Part shown: positions 3,176 to 63,548 of the stretch, in pieces
Position numbering within the stretch: the stretch's first letter is position 1
How the letters are laid out: each line of letters begins with the position of its first letter
Source: an uncultured Gammaproteobacteria bacterium
GTDB taxonomy: Bacteria > Patescibacteriota > Patescibacteriia > Magasanikbacterales > UBA922
Length of the DNA stretch: 64,000 nt
Assembly (NCBI GenBank): GCA_964345045.1
Contig: CAYFPM010000001.1
Span: forward strand, 375,632-439,631
Direction: 5' to 3'
Position numbers and translations under genes: made by a program
Notes under the pieces: model-generated
Database searches by the model: none
What the model saw: only the letters and a program-made list of their open reading frames with translations
What the model was told of the DNA's origin: nothing

Positions 3176-3206
3176 GCTTTAAAGCTTTTATGTTTTTTTG
3201 CTCTCG

Positions 3207-3224
3207 TGCTATAATGTAGCTACT
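3207..3224 (+). promoter_or_regulatory. extended -10 promoter (TGcTATAAT) abutting a start codon, possibly leaderless
   Basis: gtgctataat at 3207-3216; ATG at 3225 is 9 nt downstream, so the transcript may be leaderless. Confidence 0.3.
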
Positions 3225-5237
3225 ATGACCGCCCCGCAACTAAAACCAACCCATTCTTCCGAAGAAGACAAAGAAAATTTGTGCTTGTTTGCGCAGACCG
3301 ATTTTCGCAATCAGATGCGTCGTTTTGGTATAAAAACAGACGATCGACGTCGTCATATGTATGTAGTGGGCAAAACCGGTATGGGCAAGACCACCATGAT
3401 GGAAAACATGGTACTTCATGATATTTATAATGGACATGGAGTGGGAATTGTAGATCCTCATGGAGACTTTGCCGAAAAAATAATCAATTATATTCCACCA
3501 CACAGAATCAACGATGTGGTTTATTTCAATCCGGCCGACACCAGTTTCCCCATAGGATTTAATATTTTGGAAGTAAAAAATGATGAACAAAAACACTTGG
3601 TAGCTTCTGGACTTATGGCTACTTTCAAAAAGATTTGGCCGGATGTATGGAGTTCTAGAATGGAATACATCTTGAACAACACTCTTTTGGCACTTTTGGA
3701 CTATCCTGGTTCTACCTTGCTCGGGATAAATAGATTATTGGCTGACAAAGCCTACAGAAAAAAAGTTATTAGCAAATTGAAGGATCCGGTAGTAAAAGCT
3801 TTTTGGCAAAATGAATTTGCCAGCTATAACGACAGATATGCCCAAGAAGCTGTAGCTCCGATCCAAAACAAGATTGGTCAGTTTTTGTCTGCCAGTGTGA
3901 TTAGAAATATGGTAGCTCAGGTAAAATCAACTATAAACATCCGAGAAATTATGGATGGCCAAAAGATATTTGTAATGAATCTGTCCAAAGGTAGAATTGG
4001 AGAAGACAACAGTAGACTGCTTGGTGGTATGCTTATTACCGAAATCCAATTGGCTGCTATGGAAAGAGTAGACACTCCCGAACACGAAAGAAAAGATTTC
4101 TTTTTGTATGTAGACGAATTTCAAAACTTTGCTACCCCCAGTTTTGCCAATATTTTGTCCGAGGCTCGTAAATATCGCCTTAGTTTGATTATGGCGCACC
4201 AGTATATAAAACAGCTAGACGAAATAGTGGGGGATGCTGTGTTTGGGAACGTTGGTACTATTGTAACTTTTCGGGTGGGTGGTCCAGATGCCGAAGTTTT
4301 GGTAAAAGAATTTACTCCAACTTTTATGGAAGAAGATATTGTGAATCTAGAAAAGTTTCATATATTTTTGAAATTAATGATAAACGGAGTAGCTTCTCTA
4401 CCTTTTAGCGCTATGACTATGCCGCCAATTGGCTCGCCAACCGGTAGTGCCGAAAAAGTAATAAAAGTTTCTAGAGAAAGATATGCCAAAGACAAAAGCA
4501 GTATAGAAGACAAAATCACCAGGTGGAGTGGCATGGAGCCGGTAGAATCACAAGAAGAAGAATTTGATGTGGATACTACAAAAAGACCGCCCAAGAAAAA
4601 AGAATCCTCCAAAACAATATCGCTTAGTGATTTGAAACCAAAAGAAAATAATCCTCCAAAGGATAGTTCCAAAAAAACAAGTTCACAAAAACCAAAAGAA
4701 GAACGATCCTCTGCTTCTGATCGTCCAAAAGGAGACAAAGGGGCAGGAAATTCGTCTGCCGGCTTGGGACAAGAAAATAAAAATGGCCAAGCTGTAAGTG
4801 GTGGTGAGAGCCATGATTCGGAAAAGAAAAAAAGAAAACGAAAAAGAAAGAAAAAGAGTGAAGGCCAAAATAATGCTTCTTCTACAAATAATAATGGTAG
4901 TCAACCAAAACCAGAAGACACCCAAAAATCTCTATCCGAATTGCAATCGAGTAAACAAATAGAAAAGACTAATAAACAAGAAGAAGACTCGCCAGAAAAA
5001 CAAGAAACAACCAATACAGAGTATAAAATTAAAGATAGTAAACAACAGGTAGCAGACGTTGATGAAAAAATAGAATATAAGCAAGCTGTAGTAGAGAACA
5101 AAGATAATCAAGAAGAAAAAAACACAGAACCGATGATAAGTCTGGCAGACTTGTCGGAGAAAAAAGAAGACAAACCTACAGAAAACTCTGCCCCAAAAAA
5201 ATTAGACGAAAATGATATAATTAGTTTTGATTCTTAA
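3225..5237 (+). CDS. AAA-like ATPase of the VirD4/TraG/TraD coupling-protein type (DUF87/TraM-recognition-like) with long K/E/S-rich disordered C-terminal tail
   Basis: Walker A VVGKTGMGKTT; Walker B-like FLYVDEFQNF; C-terminal ~230 aa low-complexity lysine/glutamate/serine-rich region. The ORF track starts at TTG 3198; ATG 3225 is preferred. Confidence 0.55.
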   Translation: MTAPQLKPTHSSEEDKENLCLFAQTDFRNQMRRFGIKTDDRRRHMYVVGKTGMGKTTMMENMVLHDIYNGHGVGIVDPHGDFAEKIINYIPPHRINDVVYFNPADTSFPIGFNILEVKNDEQKHLVASGLMATFKKIWPDVWSSRMEYILNNTLLALLDYPGSTLLGINRLLADKAYRKKVISKLKDPVVKAFWQNEFASYNDRYAQEAVAPIQNKIGQFLSASVIRNMVAQVKSTINIREIMDGQKIFVMNLSKGRIGEDNSRLLGGMLITEIQLAAMERVDTPEHERKDFFLYVDEFQNFATPSFANILSEARKYRLSLIMAHQYIKQLDEIVGDAVFGNVGTIVTFRVGGPDAEVLVKEFTPTFMEEDIVNLEKFHIFLKLMINGVASLPFSAMTMPPIGSPTGSAEKVIKVSRERYAKDKSSIEDKITRWSGMEPVESQEEEFDVDTTKRPPKKKESSKTISLSDLKPKENNPPKDSSKKTSSQKPKEERSSASDRPKGDKGAGNSSAGLGQENKNGQAVSGGESHDSEKKKRKRKRKKKSEGQNNASSTNNNGSQPKPEDTQKSLSELQSSKQIEKTNKQEEDSPEKQETTNTEYKIKDSKQQVADVDEKIEYKQAVVENKDNQEEKNTEPMISLADLSEKKEDKPTENSAPKKLDENDIISFDS

Positions 5238-15107: not shown

Positions 15108-15932
15108 TTGATATGTATTATGAAATCTCTAAATGATATTGTAACCCGAGAAATGGAATTAGGCAATTATAGTCAAAAAACAATCAAAACCTATCTTGGG
15201 ATATACCAAGACCTATACAAAAATTTGGGCAAACCCCCAAGAGAAGCAAGTATGGATGAACTAAAAGATTATATCCATCAAAAAACAAAGAAAAATTTAT
15301 CTTCACAAACTATAGCTTTGTATGCCAATGCCATAAATTTTTTGTATATCTCGGTATATAAGAAAAAATCATACGAAAAATTTAAAATGCCTAAAAAGAC
15401 GAAGAAATTACCAGTAGTTTTGAGTAAAAAAGAAATCGAAACAATTGCAGCTCAAACCAAAAATTCAAAACACAAGCTAATGATTTTGTTGGCCTATGCT
15501 GCCGGACTCAGGGTAAGTGAAGTTACCAATTTGCGTGCAAAAGATATAGAATGCGACGAAGCACTGCTTACAATTCGTCAGGGAAAAGGCAAAAAAGATC
15601 GAGTTACAGTATTAAGTAATAAATTAATTGAAGAATTAAGAAGTTTAACTATAAAAAAGAATTCAGATGATTATTTGTTTGAAAGTGAGAGAGGGGGTAA
15701 ACTTACAAATGCAACCCCGCAAAAAGTATTTCAAAAATGTTTGACTAGTGCGCAAATAAAAAAGTCGGCCACCTTTCATAGTCTGCGTCATAGTTTTGCT
15801 ACGCACTTACTAGAAAACGGTGTAGATGTTCGATATGTCCAAGAACTACTCGGTCATGCCAATATTCGTACTACTCAGATATATACCAAAGTAACCAACC
15901 CAGCCATAAAAAATATCCAAAGTCCCTTATGA
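15108..15932 (+). CDS. tyrosine site-specific recombinase (XerC/XerD-like integrase family)
   Basis: C-terminal HSLRHSFATHLLENGVDVRYVQELLGHANIRTTQIYTKV (R...HxxR...Y catalytic signature); N-terminal SAM-like core-binding domain; 4-nt overlap with mnmA. Confidence 0.8.
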   Translation: MICIMKSLNDIVTREMELGNYSQKTIKTYLGIYQDLYKNLGKPPREASMDELKDYIHQKTKKNLSSQTIALYANAINFLYISVYKKKSYEKFKMPKKTKKLPVVLSKKEIETIAAQTKNSKHKLMILLAYAAGLRVSEVTNLRAKDIECDEALLTIRQGKGKKDRVTVLSNKLIEELRSLTIKKNSDDYLFESERGGKLTNATPQKVFQKCLTSAQIKKSATFHSLRHSFATHLLENGVDVRYVQELLGHANIRTTQIYTKVTNPAIKNIQSPL

Positions 15933-26779: not shown

Positions 26780-27538
26780 ATGGAACAAATTTTGCTCCCA
26801 ACAAAAATCGAATTCCAAGAAACCGATAACCCAAATGTGGGTAAGGTTGTAATTACTCCATGTCATCAAGGATATGGTACTACTCTTGGTAATGCCCTGC
26901 GTCGAGTATTGTTGTCTTCTTTGCCAGGAGCAGCAGTTGAATCTGTAAAAATAAAAGGCGTGCAGCATGAATTTTCGGCTGTAGAAGGTGTAAAGGAAGA
27001 CATGATTCAAATTATTTTAAATCTAAAGCAGTTGGCTGTTAGATCTCATTCCGATGAGGTAGTTACTTTAACCCTTAACAAAAAAGGTAAAGGTGATGTA
27101 ACTGCTGCTGATTTTGAAAAAAATTCTGATGTAGATGTAATTAGCAAAGATCTAAAAATTTGTACTGTTACAGATGCCAATATTAATTTTGAAATGGAAG
27201 TTAAAATTAGCAAAGGTAGAGGTTATGTAACTGTAGCCGAAAAAGAAACCAAAGGCCTAGACCTTGGAACTATTGCTATTGACTCACTTTATACTCCTAT
27301 TAGAGATATCGGTTACAATGTAGAAGCTACTCGTGTAGGAGACGTAACTGACTACGAAAAATTAACTTTGAGAATTGAAACCAATGGAGCTATTTCTCCA
27401 AAAGAAGCTATTTCTCAATCAACCAAAATTTTGATGGATCACTTTGCTATTGTACTAGATGCTGCTACCGAAGGTAAAAAAGAAACAGCAAAGGTAGAAT
27501 CAAAAGAAGAGGAAGAAGAAGTGCCCGCCGACGCCTAG
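26780..27538 (+). CDS. rpoA: DNA-directed RNA polymerase alpha subunit, N-terminal domain only (no alpha-CTD)
   Basis: Alpha-NTD dimerisation/assembly motifs (GYGTTLGNALRRVLLSSLPGAAV); ends after 252 aa with an acidic tail; rplQ starts 31 nt later. Confidence 0.8.
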   Translation: MEQILLPTKIEFQETDNPNVGKVVITPCHQGYGTTLGNALRRVLLSSLPGAAVESVKIKGVQHEFSAVEGVKEDMIQIILNLKQLAVRSHSDEVVTLTLNKKGKGDVTAADFEKNSDVDVISKDLKICTVTDANINFEMEVKISKGRGYVTVAEKETKGLDLGTIAIDSLYTPIRDIGYNVEATRVGDVTDYEKLTLRIETNGAISPKEAISQSTKILMDHFAIVLDAATEGKKETAKVESKEEEEEVPADA

Positions 27539-34969: not shown

Positions 34970-35884
34970 TTATTTTAATTTAGAATTATCCAAATTCACA
35001 TTCCCTCTCACAAACTCCTCACCACTCATTTCTTTTTTTCCTTCTAGTTGAAGTTTTTTCGCTACTATAGATCCAGTACCACAACCAATCAAAACTTGTT
35101 TATCGACAAATCGAATAGTCCCGGTCGGGATAGATTCTTGACTGGGTTCTATTTCGGTCAATTTCAAACGCTTGTTTTCTACGGTAGTCCAAATTCCAGG
35201 CCATGGAGTAAGACCACGAAAAAGATTAAAAATTTTAATATTAGACTGATTCCAATCTATCCGACCATCTTCGCGAGAGAATTGCCCGCAGGTAGTAGCT
35301 TGGCTATTATCTTGGTCCTTTGGCATTAACTCACCAGCTACATAGGCTGGTATAGCCTCCAAAAGCGCTTCTCGGCCTATTTTGGCTAGTTTTTGATCAA
35401 CTATAGGGTAGGTGTCGTTTGCTTCTATTACAAGGCTTTTTTGCAATAGTATAGGACCTGTATCCAAGCCTTCGTCCATTTTCATAATTGTGACTCCGGT
35501 TTTAGTTTCGCCATTTATTAGAGCAGATTGGATTGGAGATGCTCCACGATATTTTGGGAGTAGAGAAGTGTGGACATTGAGTATGCCAAGTTCTGGAGCT
35601 TCTAAAATGTGTTTGGGAACTAACAAACCATATTGAGCAGTTATTCCTAGTTTGTAGGTTGTAGTTGGTAGTGAGTAATTTTTTAAACTTTTTGGCTGTT
35701 CTACTTTTAGGCCATTTTGTTCGGCTAGGATTTTTACCGGTGGGGGAGTGAGGATTTTTTTTCTACCCGCGGGTTTGTCTGGTTGGGTGATTACCAAATC
35801 AACCGAAATATTAGGGTCGTCGATTAGGCCTTGTAAAATTGTAGTGGCAAATTGATGAGTGCCAAAAAAGATTGTTTTTATCAT
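34970..35884 (-). CDS. fmt: methionyl-tRNA formyltransferase
   Basis: N-terminal IFFGT...; HTSLLPKYRGASPIQ (SLLP formyltransferase motif); C-terminal fmt domain. Confidence 0.85.
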   Translation of the reverse strand: MIKTIFFGTHQFATTILQGLIDDPNISVDLVITQPDKPAGRKKILTPPPVKILAEQNGLKVEQPKSLKNYSLPTTTYKLGITAQYGLLVPKHILEAPELGILNVHTSLLPKYRGASPIQSALINGETKTGVTIMKMDEGLDTGPILLQKSLVIEANDTYPIVDQKLAKIGREALLEAIPAYVAGELMPKDQDNSQATTCGQFSREDGRIDWNQSNIKIFNLFRGLTPWPGIWTTVENKRLKLTEIEPSQESIPTGTIRFVDKQVLIGCGTGSIVAKKLQLEGKKEMSGEEFVRGNVNLDNSKLK

Positions 35885-35885
35885 A

Positions 35886-36629
35886 TTATTTAAAAATCAA
35901 AACTGCGGCTGAAATAAGAACTACCAAACCAAATAAAATTTTCACCCATTCTGCTCCTTTTTTTAAGGCTGTATGAGCTCCTAGCCAACCGCCCACCAAC
36001 ATCCCCAGAAAAAGAGCAATTCCATATTCGATATTAACAATCCCATTCATCGTAAACATAATCAATGGAATTAAGGTTATAAAAATACCTGGAATTTTCA
36101 TGGTGGCGGCTGATTCTATTGTAGTGAATCCAAAAAAGATCATGTATACGTAGGCTGTAAGTGTAGCCCCGGCTGCTCCAAAAAAAGCTCCCCAAGTTTG
36201 GGTTAAAAAATTTAAACAGTAACCAATGAAATTTTTGAATTTGCTGTGTTCACGGTTGATAGTTCCTATTTCTTTTTTGTAAAAAAGCAAAGGTAAAAGT
36301 GCCAAGATAATAATACTAATCAAAACTTCCAAAATTTTTCTATCAATATTCAAAAGTAATTGAGCTCCTAAGTAAGAAGAAAAAATAGCCATGATAGAAA
36401 AAGCTGGCACATATTTCCATTGGATTTTGTCGCTTTTTACATATCTAGACAAAGCTCCCAACAAAAGGCCAAATCCACCAAATTTGTTGGTAGCAATAGC
36501 TACTTGTGGTGGCACACCCATAAAAATTAAAAAAGGGATAGATACTAGTCCACCACCTCCAACCATAGCGCCAAACCAGGCGGCAAATGCCCCTACAAAA
36601 AATATCGCAATGTCGGCCCCAATGTTCAT
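35886..36629 (-). CDS. TauE/SafE-family (DUF81) membrane transporter
   Basis: 247 aa, 7-8 TM helices, GGGGLVSIPFLIFMGVPPQVAIATNKF signature. Confidence 0.7.
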   Translation of the reverse strand: MNIGADIAIFFVGAFAAWFGAMVGGGGLVSIPFLIFMGVPPQVAIATNKFGGFGLLLGALSRYVKSDKIQWKYVPAFSIMAIFSSYLGAQLLLNIDRKILEVLISIIILALLPLLFYKKEIGTINREHSKFKNFIGYCLNFLTQTWGAFFGAAGATLTAYVYMIFFGFTTIESAATMKIPGIFITLIPLIMFTMNGIVNIEYGIALFLGMLVGGWLGAHTALKKGAEWVKILFGLVVLISAAVLIFK

Positions 36630-37147: not shown

Positions 37148-37663
37148 TTAGTCTTGTCTTTTTCTAACTCTTTCAATTTTTTCTTCTGGATCAACTTCGT
37201 AAACATCTTTGGCTCTGTCGATAAATAAAATACCGTTCAAATGATCAAGTTCGTGTTGGACTACTCTGGCAAAAAAGTTTTTGGCTTCGAAATCTAGATC
37301 ACTTCCATCAACTGCCATAGCCCGTACTCGCAAATGGCTGGCTCGCTTAACTTTGCCAAAAGTATGAGGGACAGACAAACAACCTTCCGAGTCTACATTT
37401 TTTTTGCGACTAAGAATCTCTATCTCCGGATTAACCAAAATCAGATCTTCTTTCAAAGAATTGTCAGCGTCTTTGCCAATTACACAAATGCGAATATTTT
37501 TGTCTACTTGTGGAGCAGCCAGACCAATGCCTTCGTAATGGTACATGGCTGGGATCATGTCTTCGCAAAATTTTTGCATTTCTGGGGTAAGCAATTCTTC
37601 TTTGGAGACAGTCTGTGATTCTTGGCGGAGAGATTCACGAGGTAAGGTAACTAGGGGTAACAT
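37148..37663 (-). CDS. def: peptide deformylase
   Basis: GIGLAAPQV, EGCLSVP, QHELDHLNG metal-binding motifs. Confidence 0.9.
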   Translation of the reverse strand: MLPLVTLPRESLRQESQTVSKEELLTPEMQKFCEDMIPAMYHYEGIGLAAPQVDKNIRICVIGKDADNSLKEDLILVNPEIEILSRKKNVDSEGCLSVPHTFGKVKRASHLRVRAMAVDGSDLDFEAKNFFARVVQHELDHLNGILFIDRAKDVYEVDPEEKIERVRKRQD

Positions 37664-37732
37664 ACTTTCTTTATCAATTTAAGATGAAATTGTCATTGCG
37701 GTCTAAAATCGCTCGCAATGACAGAGGATAGT

Positions 37733-39595
37733 TTAGGGATTTAAAATAGAAATTGGATTAGGATCTACTTTCCAGTTGGCAGGGATTATTTTATTCAATG
37801 CTATAAGCTGTTTTTGCCAATCTTTTTTTTCTAATTTTACAGTAATTACGTACCAAAATTGTTTTCTATAAAACTTTGGTTGCATTTCTACTGGAAGACT
37901 TATTTTAGCGGCAAAATTAGTTTTTGTCAACGCAGCTTTAAGATCTTTGGCCACTCTTTCGGCTTCATTTTTGGCAATTAATTTGTCTGGGTTACCATAA
38001 AAATATCTTACCAAGTAACTATATGGTGGATAAAACGTTTTCATGCGGTAGTTAAGCTCTGTACGATAAAATCTGTCTGGTTCAATTAAAGAACGAAAAA
38101 CAAGATGATTGGGGTTGTGAGTTTGGACAAAAATTTTGCTATTGTCTCGGGTTCGAAAATCAAACTCACCCAAAGTTTGCCACAAAGATTCGGCTGCTTG
38201 AAATTCTGGGATATTTAATTCCATGTCTGGATTGATCAAAATTACCAAATCAGTTTTGTCCCAACGTACATGCCGCTTGGCCATTTGGGTGCCAATTATG
38301 ATGCGTGGTTTTTTTGTATATGGCAAATCTTCTTCTATAGAACTATCAATTCTAATAATTTCGTAAGGGCAGTCTTTGCCTAACAAGTTTTTTACTCCTT
38401 CTTCGATAAATTCTGTACCTACACCACGTAATTCTACAAACTTGTCTTTGCAACGAGGGCAAGTAAAGTTGGCTGTAATTTTTATTCTACAGTAGTTGCA
38501 AGCAAACACATTTTGTTTGGCGTGGTAGATAAGTGGTTGGTTACATTTGTGACAAGTGTTTACAAAACTACAACTAGCACAATGAACAATAGAAGAAAAA
38601 CCAAGTTTATTAATATAAAGAAAAATATCACCGGTAGCATTTTTGATAGCTTCTTTTGCTTGGTCGGCCAAAACTCCATAATGCCCGGCTTTTTTTTCGT
38701 AGAGCATGTTTAATAGTTCTATTTTTTCGAGCGGGGGTAATTTGGTGGTGTTTGTGTCCAGACCGTTTTTGTGAATATCAAAATAAGCTTCTGAGCTAGG
38801 GGAGTGAGAAACAAAAACAGTTTCAAGATTAGCTTTTTTGGCAATTAACTTGGCCAAATCTTTGGTATGAAATCTGGGGTTTTGATCCCAGTGTTTGTGA
38901 TTATTATCTCCTTCAAAAAGAATAACAATTTGATCAAAATGAAAAATTGGCAAAAGCAAAGTACCTCTAGTACCTATAATAATATTTTTTTCTTCGTTTC
39001 TAATTTCGAGCCAGCGTTCAAATTTTTGTTTGGTGCTAAGGGCACTGTGCCAAACTACAGTTTCTTTTTGTTTCTCAATAGAAAGATTTTTTTTGACTTC
39101 ATCTATCAAATAAACTTCGGGGACTACAAAAATAGTTTTTTTGTTTTTTTCCAAAAGTGTTTGGATAACTTGTTTTTGTTCATCTGGGTTTTTTACAATA
39201 AAAAATTTTTCTTTCTTGTCACCCTTTGGGGGACTTTCTTGCCCTATTATTTGTTTAAATTCTACTTTTTTAAGTTTGTTTTTTTGCAAAGGCAATAAAC
39301 TCATCTGTGCCAAAGTGGGTAGGGAAGTGGCATAAATTTGAGAAAGTTCTTTTAGATAATTTATAAAATTTTCTGTTACAATTGGTTCTTGGTTTACTAT
39401 CGATGTTACATTTTTTAATTTTGGGTCATCTTCATTTTTCAATCGCAAAACCAAGCCAAAAATTTCTGACTTGCGAAAGGAGATTTTTACCAGTTGGCCA
39501 ACTTTTATTTTTTGGGCCAAATCTGCCTCTACATTGTAATCAAAAAAAGATATTGCACGGGGCAATCTCTTTAGTGGGATAACTTCGGCAATCAT
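37733..39595 (-). CDS. priA: primosomal protein N' (PriA)-like protein lacking Walker A and with degenerate Walker B
   Basis: PriA blocks: KKTIFVVPEVYLIDEV, VVWHSALS...ERW, IIIGTRGTLLLP, VFVSHSPSSEAY, Cys-rich Zn cluster CASCSF...CHKC...CNYC...CPRC. The GxGKT P-loop segment is absent and DEEH reads FEGD. Confidence 0.55.
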   Translation of the reverse strand: MIAEVIPLKRLPRAISFFDYNVEADLAQKIKVGQLVKISFRKSEIFGLVLRLKNEDDPKLKNVTSIVNQEPIVTENFINYLKELSQIYATSLPTLAQMSLLPLQKNKLKKVEFKQIIGQESPPKGDKKEKFFIVKNPDEQKQVIQTLLEKNKKTIFVVPEVYLIDEVKKNLSIEKQKETVVWHSALSTKQKFERWLEIRNEEKNIIIGTRGTLLLPIFHFDQIVILFEGDNNHKHWDQNPRFHTKDLAKLIAKKANLETVFVSHSPSSEAYFDIHKNGLDTNTTKLPPLEKIELLNMLYEKKAGHYGVLADQAKEAIKNATGDIFLYINKLGFSSIVHCASCSFVNTCHKCNQPLIYHAKQNVFACNYCRIKITANFTCPRCKDKFVELRGVGTEFIEEGVKNLLGKDCPYEIIRIDSSIEEDLPYTKKPRIIIGTQMAKRHVRWDKTDLVILINPDMELNIPEFQAAESLWQTLGEFDFRTRDNSKIFVQTHNPNHLVFRSLIEPDRFYRTELNYRMKTFYPPYSYLVRYFYGNPDKLIAKNEAERVAKDLKAALTKTNFAAKISLPVEMQPKFYRKQFWYVITVKLEKKDWQKQLIALNKIIPANWKVDPNPISILNP

Positions 39596-39605
39596 TGTCT
39601 AATGT

Positions 39606-40379
39606 TTATATAGAAAAATGGGCAGTAAGATAGCCTACACCGTAGGGATGTTCGTACGAGTTTATAGTAAGGCGATAATTGATATTTTTCAAGATACCCA
39701 TAAGAATTAAGATAGATCTATAGCCACATTCTTCCAAATCTTTGGATTTTGACTCTAATTCTAGCAAAGACTCTATATCTTTGTCGGCTAGAGCTTGCAT
39801 TATAGTTTCGTCAAATTTTTGAGCCAAGCTGTCTTCGACATTTGCTCCATGAGCTAGATCTCCAGAAGCAATCACGGCTACTTTTTTGTTTCCTTCCATG
39901 ATTATTTCTTTGATAAGCTTACCAAAGGCAATATGGTCTGGGCCAGCCAAATTGCTATAACCTATCGGCAAAATTTTGGTTTCTTTTAAATGTTCGGTTA
40001 GATAATACAAAGGAACTGTAGATCCATGATCCAAAGTTTCATCACTTACAATTGTAATTGGGATATGTTTTTTTTTGGCACAATGATTTATTTTTGTAGC
40101 AAAGTTGGTATCTCCTTGCCAAGTTGGGTTGGTAGTTAAGTCTCCAAATTTTTGGAATTGTGATACAAAATGGGTATTTGAATTAATAGAAAAAGAATCT
40201 GCAAACAAAGCACTATGAGGAGATATAACAATTATTAAATCTGGTTTGCAGAGGTAGAGGCTTTCTTCCAATTCTTTCATGGCTTTTTGGGTGTGGGCCA
40301 AGTCAGACAATTTTTCTTTGCCTATATTTGGGATTAACACGGGTGGATGTGGGGTGATAGCAGCAAAACAAATAGACAT
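39606..40379 (-). CDS. class III extradiol dioxygenase-like / AmmeMemoRadiSam system protein B-like (LigB/MEMO fold, tentative)
   Basis: ITPHPPVLIP, VISPHSA, ASGDLAHG motifs typical of the LigB/MEMO1 family. Confidence 0.45.
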   Translation of the reverse strand: MSICFAAITPHPPVLIPNIGKEKLSDLAHTQKAMKELEESLYLCKPDLIIVISPHSALFADSFSINSNTHFVSQFQKFGDLTTNPTWQGDTNFATKINHCAKKKHIPITIVSDETLDHGSTVPLYYLTEHLKETKILPIGYSNLAGPDHIAFGKLIKEIIMEGNKKVAVIASGDLAHGANVEDSLAQKFDETIMQALADKDIESLLELESKSKDLEECGYRSILILMGILKNINYRLTINSYEHPYGVGYLTAHFSI

Positions 40380-62840: not shown

Positions 62841-63548
62841 ATGAGTGTAGCAAAAATAAAAAAAGACCTTCGCAATCTAGCAGACCCAGAAAGAAAAAAA
62901 GTTTATGAGTGGTTTTTTAAGACTGGTCGAGGCCAATATGGGGAAGGGGATAAATTTTTGGGAGTAGTGATGCCAAACATTCGTAAAGTTGCCAAAAATT
63001 ATGTAGAAATGGATTTAGAGAATATAGAAAAGATTTTACAATCTTCATTTCACGAAGATCGGATGTGTGCTTTGGTAATAATGACTTATAAATTTAAAAA
63101 AGTTGATGAAAAAGAACAGAAGAAAATTTATAATTCTTATCTAAAACATATAAAAAAGTATGTAAATAATTGGGATTTGGTAGATGTAAGTGCCCATAAG
63201 ATTGTGGGGGAGTATTTGTTAGACAAAGATAGGAATATACTTTACAAATTAGCTAAATCAAAAAATTTGTGGGAAAGACGAGTAGCAATTGTAGCTACTT
63301 ATCAATTTATAAAAAATAAAGAATTGGAAGATACTTTGAAAATATCAAAAATATTGCTAGAAGATAGTCATGATCTAATCCACAAAGCTGTGGGGTGGAT
63401 GTTGCGAGAGGCTGGGAAAAAAGATGTAAAAGTTTTGGAAAAATTTTTGAAAAAATATTATAAAAAAATGCCACGGACTATGCTTCGTTATTCAATAGAA
63501 AAATTCCCAGAAAAAATTAGAAAAGATTATTTGGTTGGTAAGATATAA
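62841..63548 (+). CDS. DNA alkylation repair protein (AlkD/AlkC-like HEAT-repeat glycosylase family)
   Basis: LRNLADPERKKVYEWFFKTG..., WDLVDVSA, WERRVAIVATY HEAT-like repeats typical of AlkD. Confidence 0.7.
   Translation: MSVAKIKKDLRNLADPERKKVYEWFFKTGRGQYGEGDKFLGVVMPNIRKVAKNYVEMDLENIEKILQSSFHEDRMCALVIMTYKFKKVDEKEQKKIYNSYLKHIKKYVNNWDLVDVSAHKIVGEYLLDKDRNILYKLAKSKNLWERRVAIVATYQFIKNKELEDTLKISKILLEDSHDLIHKAVGWMLREAGKKDVKVLEKFLKKYYKKMPRTMLRYSIEKFPEKIRKDYLVGKI

Follow-up and report, generated by a model that had tools for sequence, protein, structure and literature searches.

Can a replication restart helicase lose its motor and still be retained for its work at the fork? This question is raised by the priA gene in a 64,000 nt stretch of contig CAYFPM010000001.1, which we refer to as the window. 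The gene (positions 37733-39595, minus strand) encodes a protein of 620 amino acids in one uninterrupted frame. The nucleotide site of this protein has been dismantled, and its DNA-gripping surfaces are kept. We propose, with a probability of about 0.7, that the protein is a PriA pseudohelicase. Judging from its sequence, it would be a PriA-shaped fork clamp without a motor, serving as an ATP-independent scaffold for fork recognition and helicase recruitment.

The gene encodes an orthologue of PriA

The TIGR00595 model ('replication restart helicase PriA') matched residues 142-615 of the protein with 247.1 bits, compared to a cutoff of 230.35. Pfam recognised the PriA 3'-DNA-binding domain (3'BD; PF17764, E=5e-13). 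Matches to the DEAD and Helicase_C families were sub-threshold only. A phmmer search of PDB sequences returned Klebsiella pneumoniae and Escherichia coli PriA (E~1e-33). The N-terminus (MIAEVIPLKRLP) agrees with the consensus of the clade described below.

We then considered the predicted fold. An AlphaFold2 model (m9c6350b12144) was built from a 64-sequence alignment. The predicted local distance difference test score (pLDDT) was 91.6 and the predicted template modelling (TM) score was 0.90. The top Foldseek matches were PriA only; other superfamily 2 (SF2) helicases had TM values of ~0.3. The best match was fork- and PriB-bound E. coli PriA (8fak_H, E=2.8e-40, TM 0.79, root mean square deviation 5.2 Å). 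The second best was an engineered E. coli PriA with the winged-helix (WH) domain deleted (6dcr, TM 0.70). Apo or ADP-bound PriA gave TM values of 0.67-0.70 and deviations of about 9-10 Å. The two RecA-like lobes, the cysteine-rich two-zinc insertion in lobe 2 and the C-terminal domain (CTD) were all present, with full-length TM values of 0.67-0.79 to the E. coli and K. pneumoniae proteins. The model is thus nearer to fork-bound than to apo PriA. This is only a hint that the protein may be biased, by default, towards a pore conformation in which the cysteine-rich region (CRR) is raised (CRR-UP). Taken together, TIGR00595, PF17764, phmmer and Foldseek bear out an earlier, sequence-only reading of the window, which described a PriA homologue with conserved PriA segments.

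The end of priA is 70 nt from def, with fmt next. A Memo/LigB-like gene and a gene for an S11 peptidase are upstream. Using tblastn, the order S11 peptidase-Memo-priA-def-fmt was seen in nearly all of 51 related genomes. Both def and fmt were directly downstream of priA at ~40 of these 51 loci, and the order in the window is identical. The shared five-gene order indicates that the gene occupies the orthologous priA slot and is not a stray paralogue. A tblastn search with intact PriA sequences detected no other priA in the window. The nearest relatives of the protein are PriAs of Candidatus Magasanikbacteria (Patescibacteria, or candidate phyla radiation; CPR), with identities of up to 49%. The window is housekeeping DNA with a GC content of ~36%. 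We conclude that the gene encodes the PriA orthologue of a CPR bacterium similar to Magasanikbacteria.

The nucleotide site is dismantled

As the sequence-only reading had noticed, the P-loop signature GxGK[TS] is absent. There is no match in the whole protein, and the expected position reads V-K-N-P. By counting residues, we located this position upstream of the helix containing QTLLEKN; strand K130-I133 is followed by the turn K135-N136-P137 and then the helix. Secondary structure assignments for the model concur (strand beta-1 130-133, loop 134-136, helix from 137). Compared with four intact PriAs, the canonical 8-residue 'xVTGSGKT' has become the 3-residue 'KNP', a net change of -5. The earlier reading had instead placed a gap of ~25 amino acids between QTLLEKN and KKTIFVVPE. 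No such gap exists, because the canonical helix that follows the P-loop also runs straight into that strand. In a phmmer alignment, SVLENVLAQG of canonical PriA is followed by (K/R)QALVMVPE with no intervening block.

The Walker B motif has also degenerated. Here, the earlier claim of a defective DEEH box stands, but its reading of the site as 'FEGD' does not; the alignment gives L226-F227-E228-G229 (LFEG). The clade consensus at this site is D-[YFD]-E-H, and LFEG is an outlier. Two further losses had been missed. Motif III has changed from SAT to SHS, and motif VI from QxxGRxGR to EFDFRTR. Motif V, on which the earlier reading was silent, has changed from GTQMLAKGHHFP to GTQMAKRHVRW.

The largest piece missing, compared to E. 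coli PriA, lies between the 3'BD and helicase lobe 1. It comprises the WH domain, which is residues 109-181 of the E. coli protein (PMC5778457), and the LNxxQ helix. The columns for LNxEQ are gapped and the conserved canonical Gln is lost. The linker found in their place has 29 residues, is poorly conserved and contains one 4-residue helix with lower pLDDT. Nothing in it corresponds to Trp186/Arg187/Tyr190, the linker motif of the E. coli protein. The WH domain is short or absent in intact CPR PriAs, too, P0222 being an example. Thus, the WH domain is not universal in the PriA family. The loss of motifs Q, I, II, III and VI, all together, leaves the SF2 nucleotide site without any of its elements.

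Residues that contact DNA and zinc are conserved

We compared conservation in 205 PriAs without motor motifs and 42 canonical PriAs. The same residue was present at a frequency of at least 85% in both groups at 35 positions. In the 3'BD these include Y20, G33, K61 and Y88. The helicase lobes contribute P159, G208 and R210 (motifs Ia and Ib), E228 and K234 (motif II and the start of the aromatic-rich loop; ARL), and G391, G393, G435 and T436 (motifs IVa and V). The remainder include eight cysteines and several CTD residues. The zinc module described by the sequence-only reading is therefore complete, with its Cys4 and Cys4 clusters formed by C339, C342, C348, C351, C366, C369, C379 and C382. 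The CTD residues shared by both groups include R517, P523, P524, D611 and P614.

Positions were related to E. coli PriA via a Vibrio PriA, for which numbering was verified as equal to E. coli from K230 to E492. In E. coli, D17 and Y18 have roles in the pocket for the 3' end (PMC5778457). The equivalent residues are D19 and Y20, and the tyrosine is found in 203 of the 205 clade members. Crosslinking places the ARL of E. coli PriA at the fork junction (PMC5175346). Within the clade, K234 (204/205), R241 (193/205) and D237 (179/205) of this loop are strongly conserved, and HK[HS]WDQxPR was the most conserved pattern picked for the locus search described below. R427 and R428 of E. coli PriA bind single-stranded DNA (ssDNA) inside the pore, and H455 and E492 stabilise the pore-forming CRR-UP state (PMC13594977). 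The first pair corresponds to K330 and L331 in motif IV; N329 is present in 165, and R or K at position 330 in 192, of the 205 sequences. The second pair corresponds to H358 and E395, both of which are retained. All of the SF2 motifs that contact nucleic acid can be recognised in the protein: Ia (VPE), Ib (IIGTR), IV (N-K-x-G) and V (GT). The PriB-docking residues of E. coli PriA (D438, S481, T482 and H483) were also considered. These are uninformative, since they are unconserved in the clade and in the canonical sample alike.

Different positions were conserved in canonical PriAs only. These are the Gln of the Q-motif, G-S-G-K-T, 'TPQ' of motif Ia, the motif II glutamate, the A and T of SAT, the Q, M, K and G of motif V, and Q..GRAG of motif VI. 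We conclude that the DNA-gripping surfaces and zinc module of this orthologous priA are under purifying selection.

Motor loss is common to a large clade

None of the 67 closest database matches contains GxGK[TS]; canonical PriAs with GSGKT and DEEH appear lower in the list. A profile search of 1.84 billion cluster representatives yielded 150 representatives at 50% identity, all scoring >526 bits. Motifs I and VI were both lost in 135 of 136 new representatives at this identity. We scored five motifs (Q, I, II, III and VI) in 251 proteins. All five were lost in 192 cases, 38 proteins were fully canonical, and a few were intermediate. Related loci were sought using patterns derived from an 18-sequence subset, a procedure biased to relatives with the ARL or linker motifs of the clade, and all 51 GTDB species-representative loci so recovered were degenerate. 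They are labelled as Magasanikbacteria, Paceibacteria, Parcubacteria or Sungiibacteriota, with several 'Gammaproteobacteria' that are evidently mislabelled.

In two neighbour-joining (NJ) trees, all of the motor-less forms fell in one clade. Its nearest neighbours were the short intact CPR PriAs P0222, P0303, P0305 and P0329; the partly degenerate P0086 was also beside it. A full WH domain is missing from the intact neighbours, too, so this domain was lost before the motor. Thus, motor loss is common to one large Parcubacteria/Paceibacteria clade.

An early-branching subgroup (P0070, P0085, P0087 and P0246; ~650 amino acids) has DEEH, a P-loop relic 'GSERH' derived from GSGKT, SPT in place of SAT, and no motif VI. 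The subgroup looks like an intermediate, or early stage, in a decay series. Its change of lysine to arginine resembles that in Deinococcus.

Some motor-less members have lost zinc-ligand cysteines. Others, of 556-585 amino acids and matched by the profile in two stretches, appear to be without the whole cysteine-rich region. The members reduced in one or other way are P0032, P0038, P0040, P0041, P0052, P0059, P0061, P0194, P0220, P0221 and P0236. These losses suggest a further step in the reduction of PriA.

Metagenome-assembled genomes named 'uncultured Gammaproteobacteria bacterium' carry a CPR-type priA with the conserved synteny at loci L005, L014, L016, L020, L021, L023, L026, L027, L034, L041, L044, L045, L047, L048 and L050. 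The same is true of L053, titled 'Candidatus Saccharibacteria', for which PriA groups with Sungbacteria. The organism labels of these loci look wrong. We considered whether the clade extends to Saccharibacteria (TM7), L053 being the most distant locus. The idea was dropped because the relatives of L053 are all Sungbacteria, which renders its label doubtful.

A model for PriA without a motor

The sequence-only reading had predicted a PriA that is dead as an ATPase and helicase and keeps a role in fork recognition and scaffolding. This prediction fits well with the loss of motifs and the conservation of DNA contacts and zinc sites. In our model, CPR PriA would bind abandoned forks and D-loops, free of ATP, via the 3' end of the nascent leading strand, the junction and ssDNA of the lagging-strand template. 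Once bound, it would be a platform that recruits the replicative helicase. Recruitment might be direct, similar to the Deinococcus PriA-DnaB interaction, or through a loader. In fork-bound E. coli PriA, the CRR closes over ~9 nt of lagging-strand ssDNA to make a pore, and a duplex lagging arm is first unwound (PMC13594977). Lacking a motor, CPR PriA would presumably be unable to open a duplex lagging arm. It would then be confined to forks where ~9-11 nt or more of the lagging strand are already single-stranded, or need a second enzyme to remove the arm. Pfam searches of 30 further open reading frames (ORFs) in the 64-kb window recognised no RecG, Rep, UvrD or PcrA.

A bolder version of the model is possible, though we hold it to be somewhat doubtful. 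In Magasanikbacteria, Sungbacteria and other Parcubacteria/Paceibacteria, PriA may be a permanently ATP-free clamp that encircles ssDNA, perhaps biased to the CRR-UP state, and recruits the replicative helicase alone, with no need of PriB, DnaT or unwinding. If so, the clamp would be a natural minimal system for replication restart, operating only at forks or D-loops with exposed lagging-strand ssDNA.

Several points weigh against a fork clamp of either kind. Loss of ATPase activity, binding of DNA and recruitment of partners are all deduced from sequence and predicted structure. The searches of these 30 ORFs recognised no replication gene in the window; DnaB, DnaC, DnaI, DciA and SSB were not found. 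NJ is a crude way of building trees, and the motor-less forms may look more monophyletic than they are because of long-branch attraction. The groups compared for conservation are unequal in size and depth (205 vs 42). Finally, the protein differs from the rest of its clade at motifs II (LFEG vs D-Y-E-H) and IV (K-L vs R-R/K), and constraint at these motifs may be weaker in this genome.

Alternative explanations

The fold may have been kept and the job changed. PriA would then sense DNA structures in another context, for example recombination, competence or genome defence, and have no part in replication restart. Relaxed constraint in the helicase lobes is in keeping with this idea; the mean frequency of the top residue falls from 0.60/0.61 in canonical PriAs to 0.43/0.41 in the clade. 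So too are the missing WH domain and Trp186 linker motif, a new Trp in the ARL (W236, 151/205) and an Arg in place of a canonical Gly of the 3'BD (R41, 158/205). The same measure holds or rises outside the lobes, being 0.47 vs 0.44 for the 3'BD, and 0.44 vs 0.37 for the CTD, in motor-less and canonical proteins respectively. However, only three positions (P12, P463 and Y510) are newly fixed in the clade, so no new active site has arisen. Furthermore, the residues conserved are those with which E. coli PriA recognises forks, the ancestral priA-def-fmt slot is kept, and no second priA was seen in the window. Hence, we regard a change of job as unlikely.

Less likely again is that the protein remains an NTPase or helicase, with a nucleotide site that is non-canonical or has moved. 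E. coli PriA has itself been suggested to possess another nucleotide site, of unassigned location (PMC5778457). In addition, E228 and K234 are nearly invariant, and there is a clade-conserved 'E-H-K' patch at the former P-loop helix. However, the five nucleotide-site motifs have gone together, and with them both arginine fingers and the Gln that reads adenine. A change of K to R is alone sufficient to kill the E. coli and Deinococcus enzymes (PMC5778457, PMC4504706). Moreover, the former P-loop is glycine-free and acidic, with E the commonest residue at the motif I Gly and K230 columns. The K230 column has no consensus among the 205 clade members (E 54, K 33, Q 28), as expected of relaxed selection rather than of a new catalytic site.

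It is very improbable that the gene is a decaying relic without function. A reduced genome, lost catalytic motifs and, in some relatives, the absence of zinc cysteines or the whole CRR could be read in this way. However, intact ORFs of full length (~600-640 amino acids) persist in >200 clusters at 50% identity, despite divergence down to ~23-25% identity, and these share numerous invariant residues and a fixed gene order, with a confidently predicted fold.

Error in sequencing or assembly, or a frameshift concealing an intact Walker A, which the sequence-only reading had raised as fatal to its case, can be excluded for practical purposes, since the identical 620-amino-acid protein occurs on a 621-kb contig and was recovered by independent assembly three times (once in ENA and twice in Logan, the Logan runs being different), no Walker A was found elsewhere in the protein or in other frames of the coding strand (a six-frame scan of 37600-39750 gave a single match, which lay on the opposite strand and in a frame broken by 36 stops), and all relatives are in the same state.

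Features and surroundings of the gene

The coordinates of priA, its sequence features and its syntenic neighbours are listed in Table 1.

Table 1. Positions in the window of priA, its features and conserved neighbours.
Feature	Position	Strand	Basis or remarks
fmt (methionyl-tRNA formyltransferase)	34970..35884	-	Member of priA-def-fmt synteny; synteny comparison
def (peptide deformylase)	37148..37663	-	Directly downstream of priA; Pfam; adjoins priA in 47/51 related genomes
priA orthologue, motor-less (pseudohelicase) form	37733..39595	-	TIGR00595; phmmer vs PDB PriA; Foldseek 8fak_H
CTD, aa 504-620	37736..38086	-	Conserved; TIGR00595 match to residue 615
Motif VI remnant WQTLGEFDFRTR	38147..38182	-	Q..GRxGR and both arginine fingers gone, 3-residue deletion; alignment
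Motif V IIIGTQMAKRHVRWD	38258..38302	-	GT retained, KGHHFP gone; alignment
CRR, eight zinc-ligand cysteines, aa 339-382	38450..38581	-	All 8 Cys at least 85% in motor-less and canonical groups
Motif IV YINKLGF (canonical LNRRGF/Y)	38597..38617	-	ssDNA-pore contact; alignment, E. coli mapping
Motif III remnant SHSPS	38795..38809	-	Replaces SATPS; alignment
ARL HKHWDQNPRFHTKD, aa 233-246	38858..38899	-	Most conserved stretch of the clade
Motif II (Walker B) remnant LFEG	38909..38920	-	Replaces DEEH, only E228 conserved; phmmer, alignment
Motif Ib IIIGTRG	38963..38983	-	Conserved; G208, R210 at least 85% in both groups
Motif Ia VVPEVYLIDE	39098..39127	-	VPE retained, canonical LTPQ gone; alignment
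Motif I (Walker A) remnant KFFIVKNPDEQK, aa 130-141	39173..39208	-	Strand, 3-residue turn, helix; no glycine, no GK[TS]; alignment, model
Short linker, aa 101-129	39209..39295	-	In place of WH domain and LNxxQ (Q-motif) helix; model, alignment
3'BD, aa 1-100	39296..39595	-	3'-end pocket D19, Y20, K61 conserved; PF17764
Memo/LigB-like gene	39606..40379	-	Ends 10 nt upstream of priA; conserved upstream neighbour

A gene for a TauE/SafE-family membrane protein (35886-36629, minus strand) sits between def and fmt. No homologue was found between these genes at any of the 51 related loci. The gene has therefore been inserted into the priA-def-fmt block in this lineage specifically.

The only other genes for DNA metabolism recognised in the window encode a Xer-type tyrosine recombinase (15108-15932, plus strand) and an AlkD-like DNA alkylation repair protein (62841-63548, plus strand). 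A TrwB/VirD4-like coupling ATPase of type IV secretion (679 amino acids; 3198-5237, plus strand) was identified by matches to PF10412 (E=9e-16), TraG-D_C and HerA/DUF87. Its surroundings in this reduced genome are otherwise of housekeeping type. The RNA polymerase alpha subunit (RpoA; 26780-27538, plus strand) has 252 amino acids and matched only the Pfam families RNA_pol_A_bac and RNA_pol_L, which describe the N-terminal domain. No family for the alpha CTD was matched at E<=1e-4, and this RpoA may be CTD-less. In positions 1-64000, ARAGORN detected no tRNA gene, and no Rfam family reached its gathering threshold.

Significance

In >200 sequence clusters, and in 51 or more genomes of species level, the nucleotide site has been wholly erased and the fork-gripping surfaces left intact. 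The clade, a far larger exception than Deinococcus, can thus be viewed as nature's own separation-of-function experiment. Its existence favours the idea that the indispensable job of PriA is structure-specific fork recognition and nucleation of the primosome, not unwinding. Evolution has also marked the residues for the fork job, namely those of the 3'-end pocket, ARL, motif IV, CRR and CRR-UP interface. A compact PriA of 620 amino acids, free of the WH domain and presumably independent of ATP, could make structural and single-molecule studies of fork recognition simpler. For genome maintenance in CPR organisms, the clade prompts two questions: which enzyme removes a duplex lagging arm, and which factor loads DnaB? 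The automated labels 'primosomal protein N'' and 'replication restart helicase' overstate the likely activity of these proteins.

Comparison with known PriA proteins

Full-text literature searches returned nothing relevant on PriA in Patescibacteria or the candidate phyla radiation, and nothing relevant on DciA or a helicase loader in CPR. The closest intact relatives are the short canonical CPR PriAs P0222, P0303, P0305 and P0329 (~665-675 amino acids), which are likewise without a full WH domain. P0222 (Candidatus Torokbacteria, PIZ56789.1) aligns with our protein from end to end (26% identity, E=1.5e-65) and shares with the clade the CPR-type ARL 'WDQxPR'. However, LNxxQ, GSGKT, DEEH, SAT and QxxGRxGR are all intact in P0222, and motifs I, II and VI are intact in the other three. 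On the basis of these motifs, the short canonical proteins are presumably active helicases. The architecture 3'BD-HD1-HD2/CRR-CTD, with no WH domain, is also that of the E. coli deletion protein 6dcr. The latter differs in being an engineered construct with an active ATPase site.

The E. coli substitutions K230R, K230A and K230D (priA300-type, ATPase-dead) demonstrate that a motor-less PriA can be functional. These are laboratory point changes in a site that is otherwise intact, whereas the CPR protein is natural and multiply degenerate. Furthermore, the K230 mutants depend on PriB and DnaT, proteins that CPR organisms are not expected to have, and do not work in the PriA-PriC pathway.

The best natural parallel is found in Deinococcus-Thermus, where PriA pseudohelicases were described in 2015 by Lopper, Boone and Morrow (PMC4504706). 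The ATPase-dead Deinococcus protein, cited as a precedent by the sequence-only reading, is real and was established by experiment; Deinococcus radiodurans PriA has no ATPase or helicase activity and binds ssDNA, forks and DnaB (PMC4504706). A 2017 review considered Deinococcus to be the sole exception to conserved PriA helicase activity (PMC5778457). Like the Deinococcus-Thermus proteins, CPR PriA is a natural orthologue, kept under selection, with non-consensus Walker A and B motifs. The lineage-wide departure from consensus by which the Deinococcus-Thermus pseudohelicases are recognised is also seen throughout the CPR clade. In Deinococcus-Thermus, however, the P-loop is still recognisable and the lysine of GKT is replaced by arginine. 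In the CPR form, which belongs to another phylum, the loop is down to three residues, and the losses extend to the Q motif, motif III and the two arginines of motif VI. The position of the clade beside intact CPR PriAs, in NJ trees that contain no Deinococcus sequences, suggests an independent origin. The kind of protein is thus already known from Deinococcus-Thermus, and the CPR form is new in degree, in architecture (no WH domain) and in lineage, not in principle. CPR PriA is the second natural motor-less case after Deinococcus, apparently of independent origin, and the most extreme.

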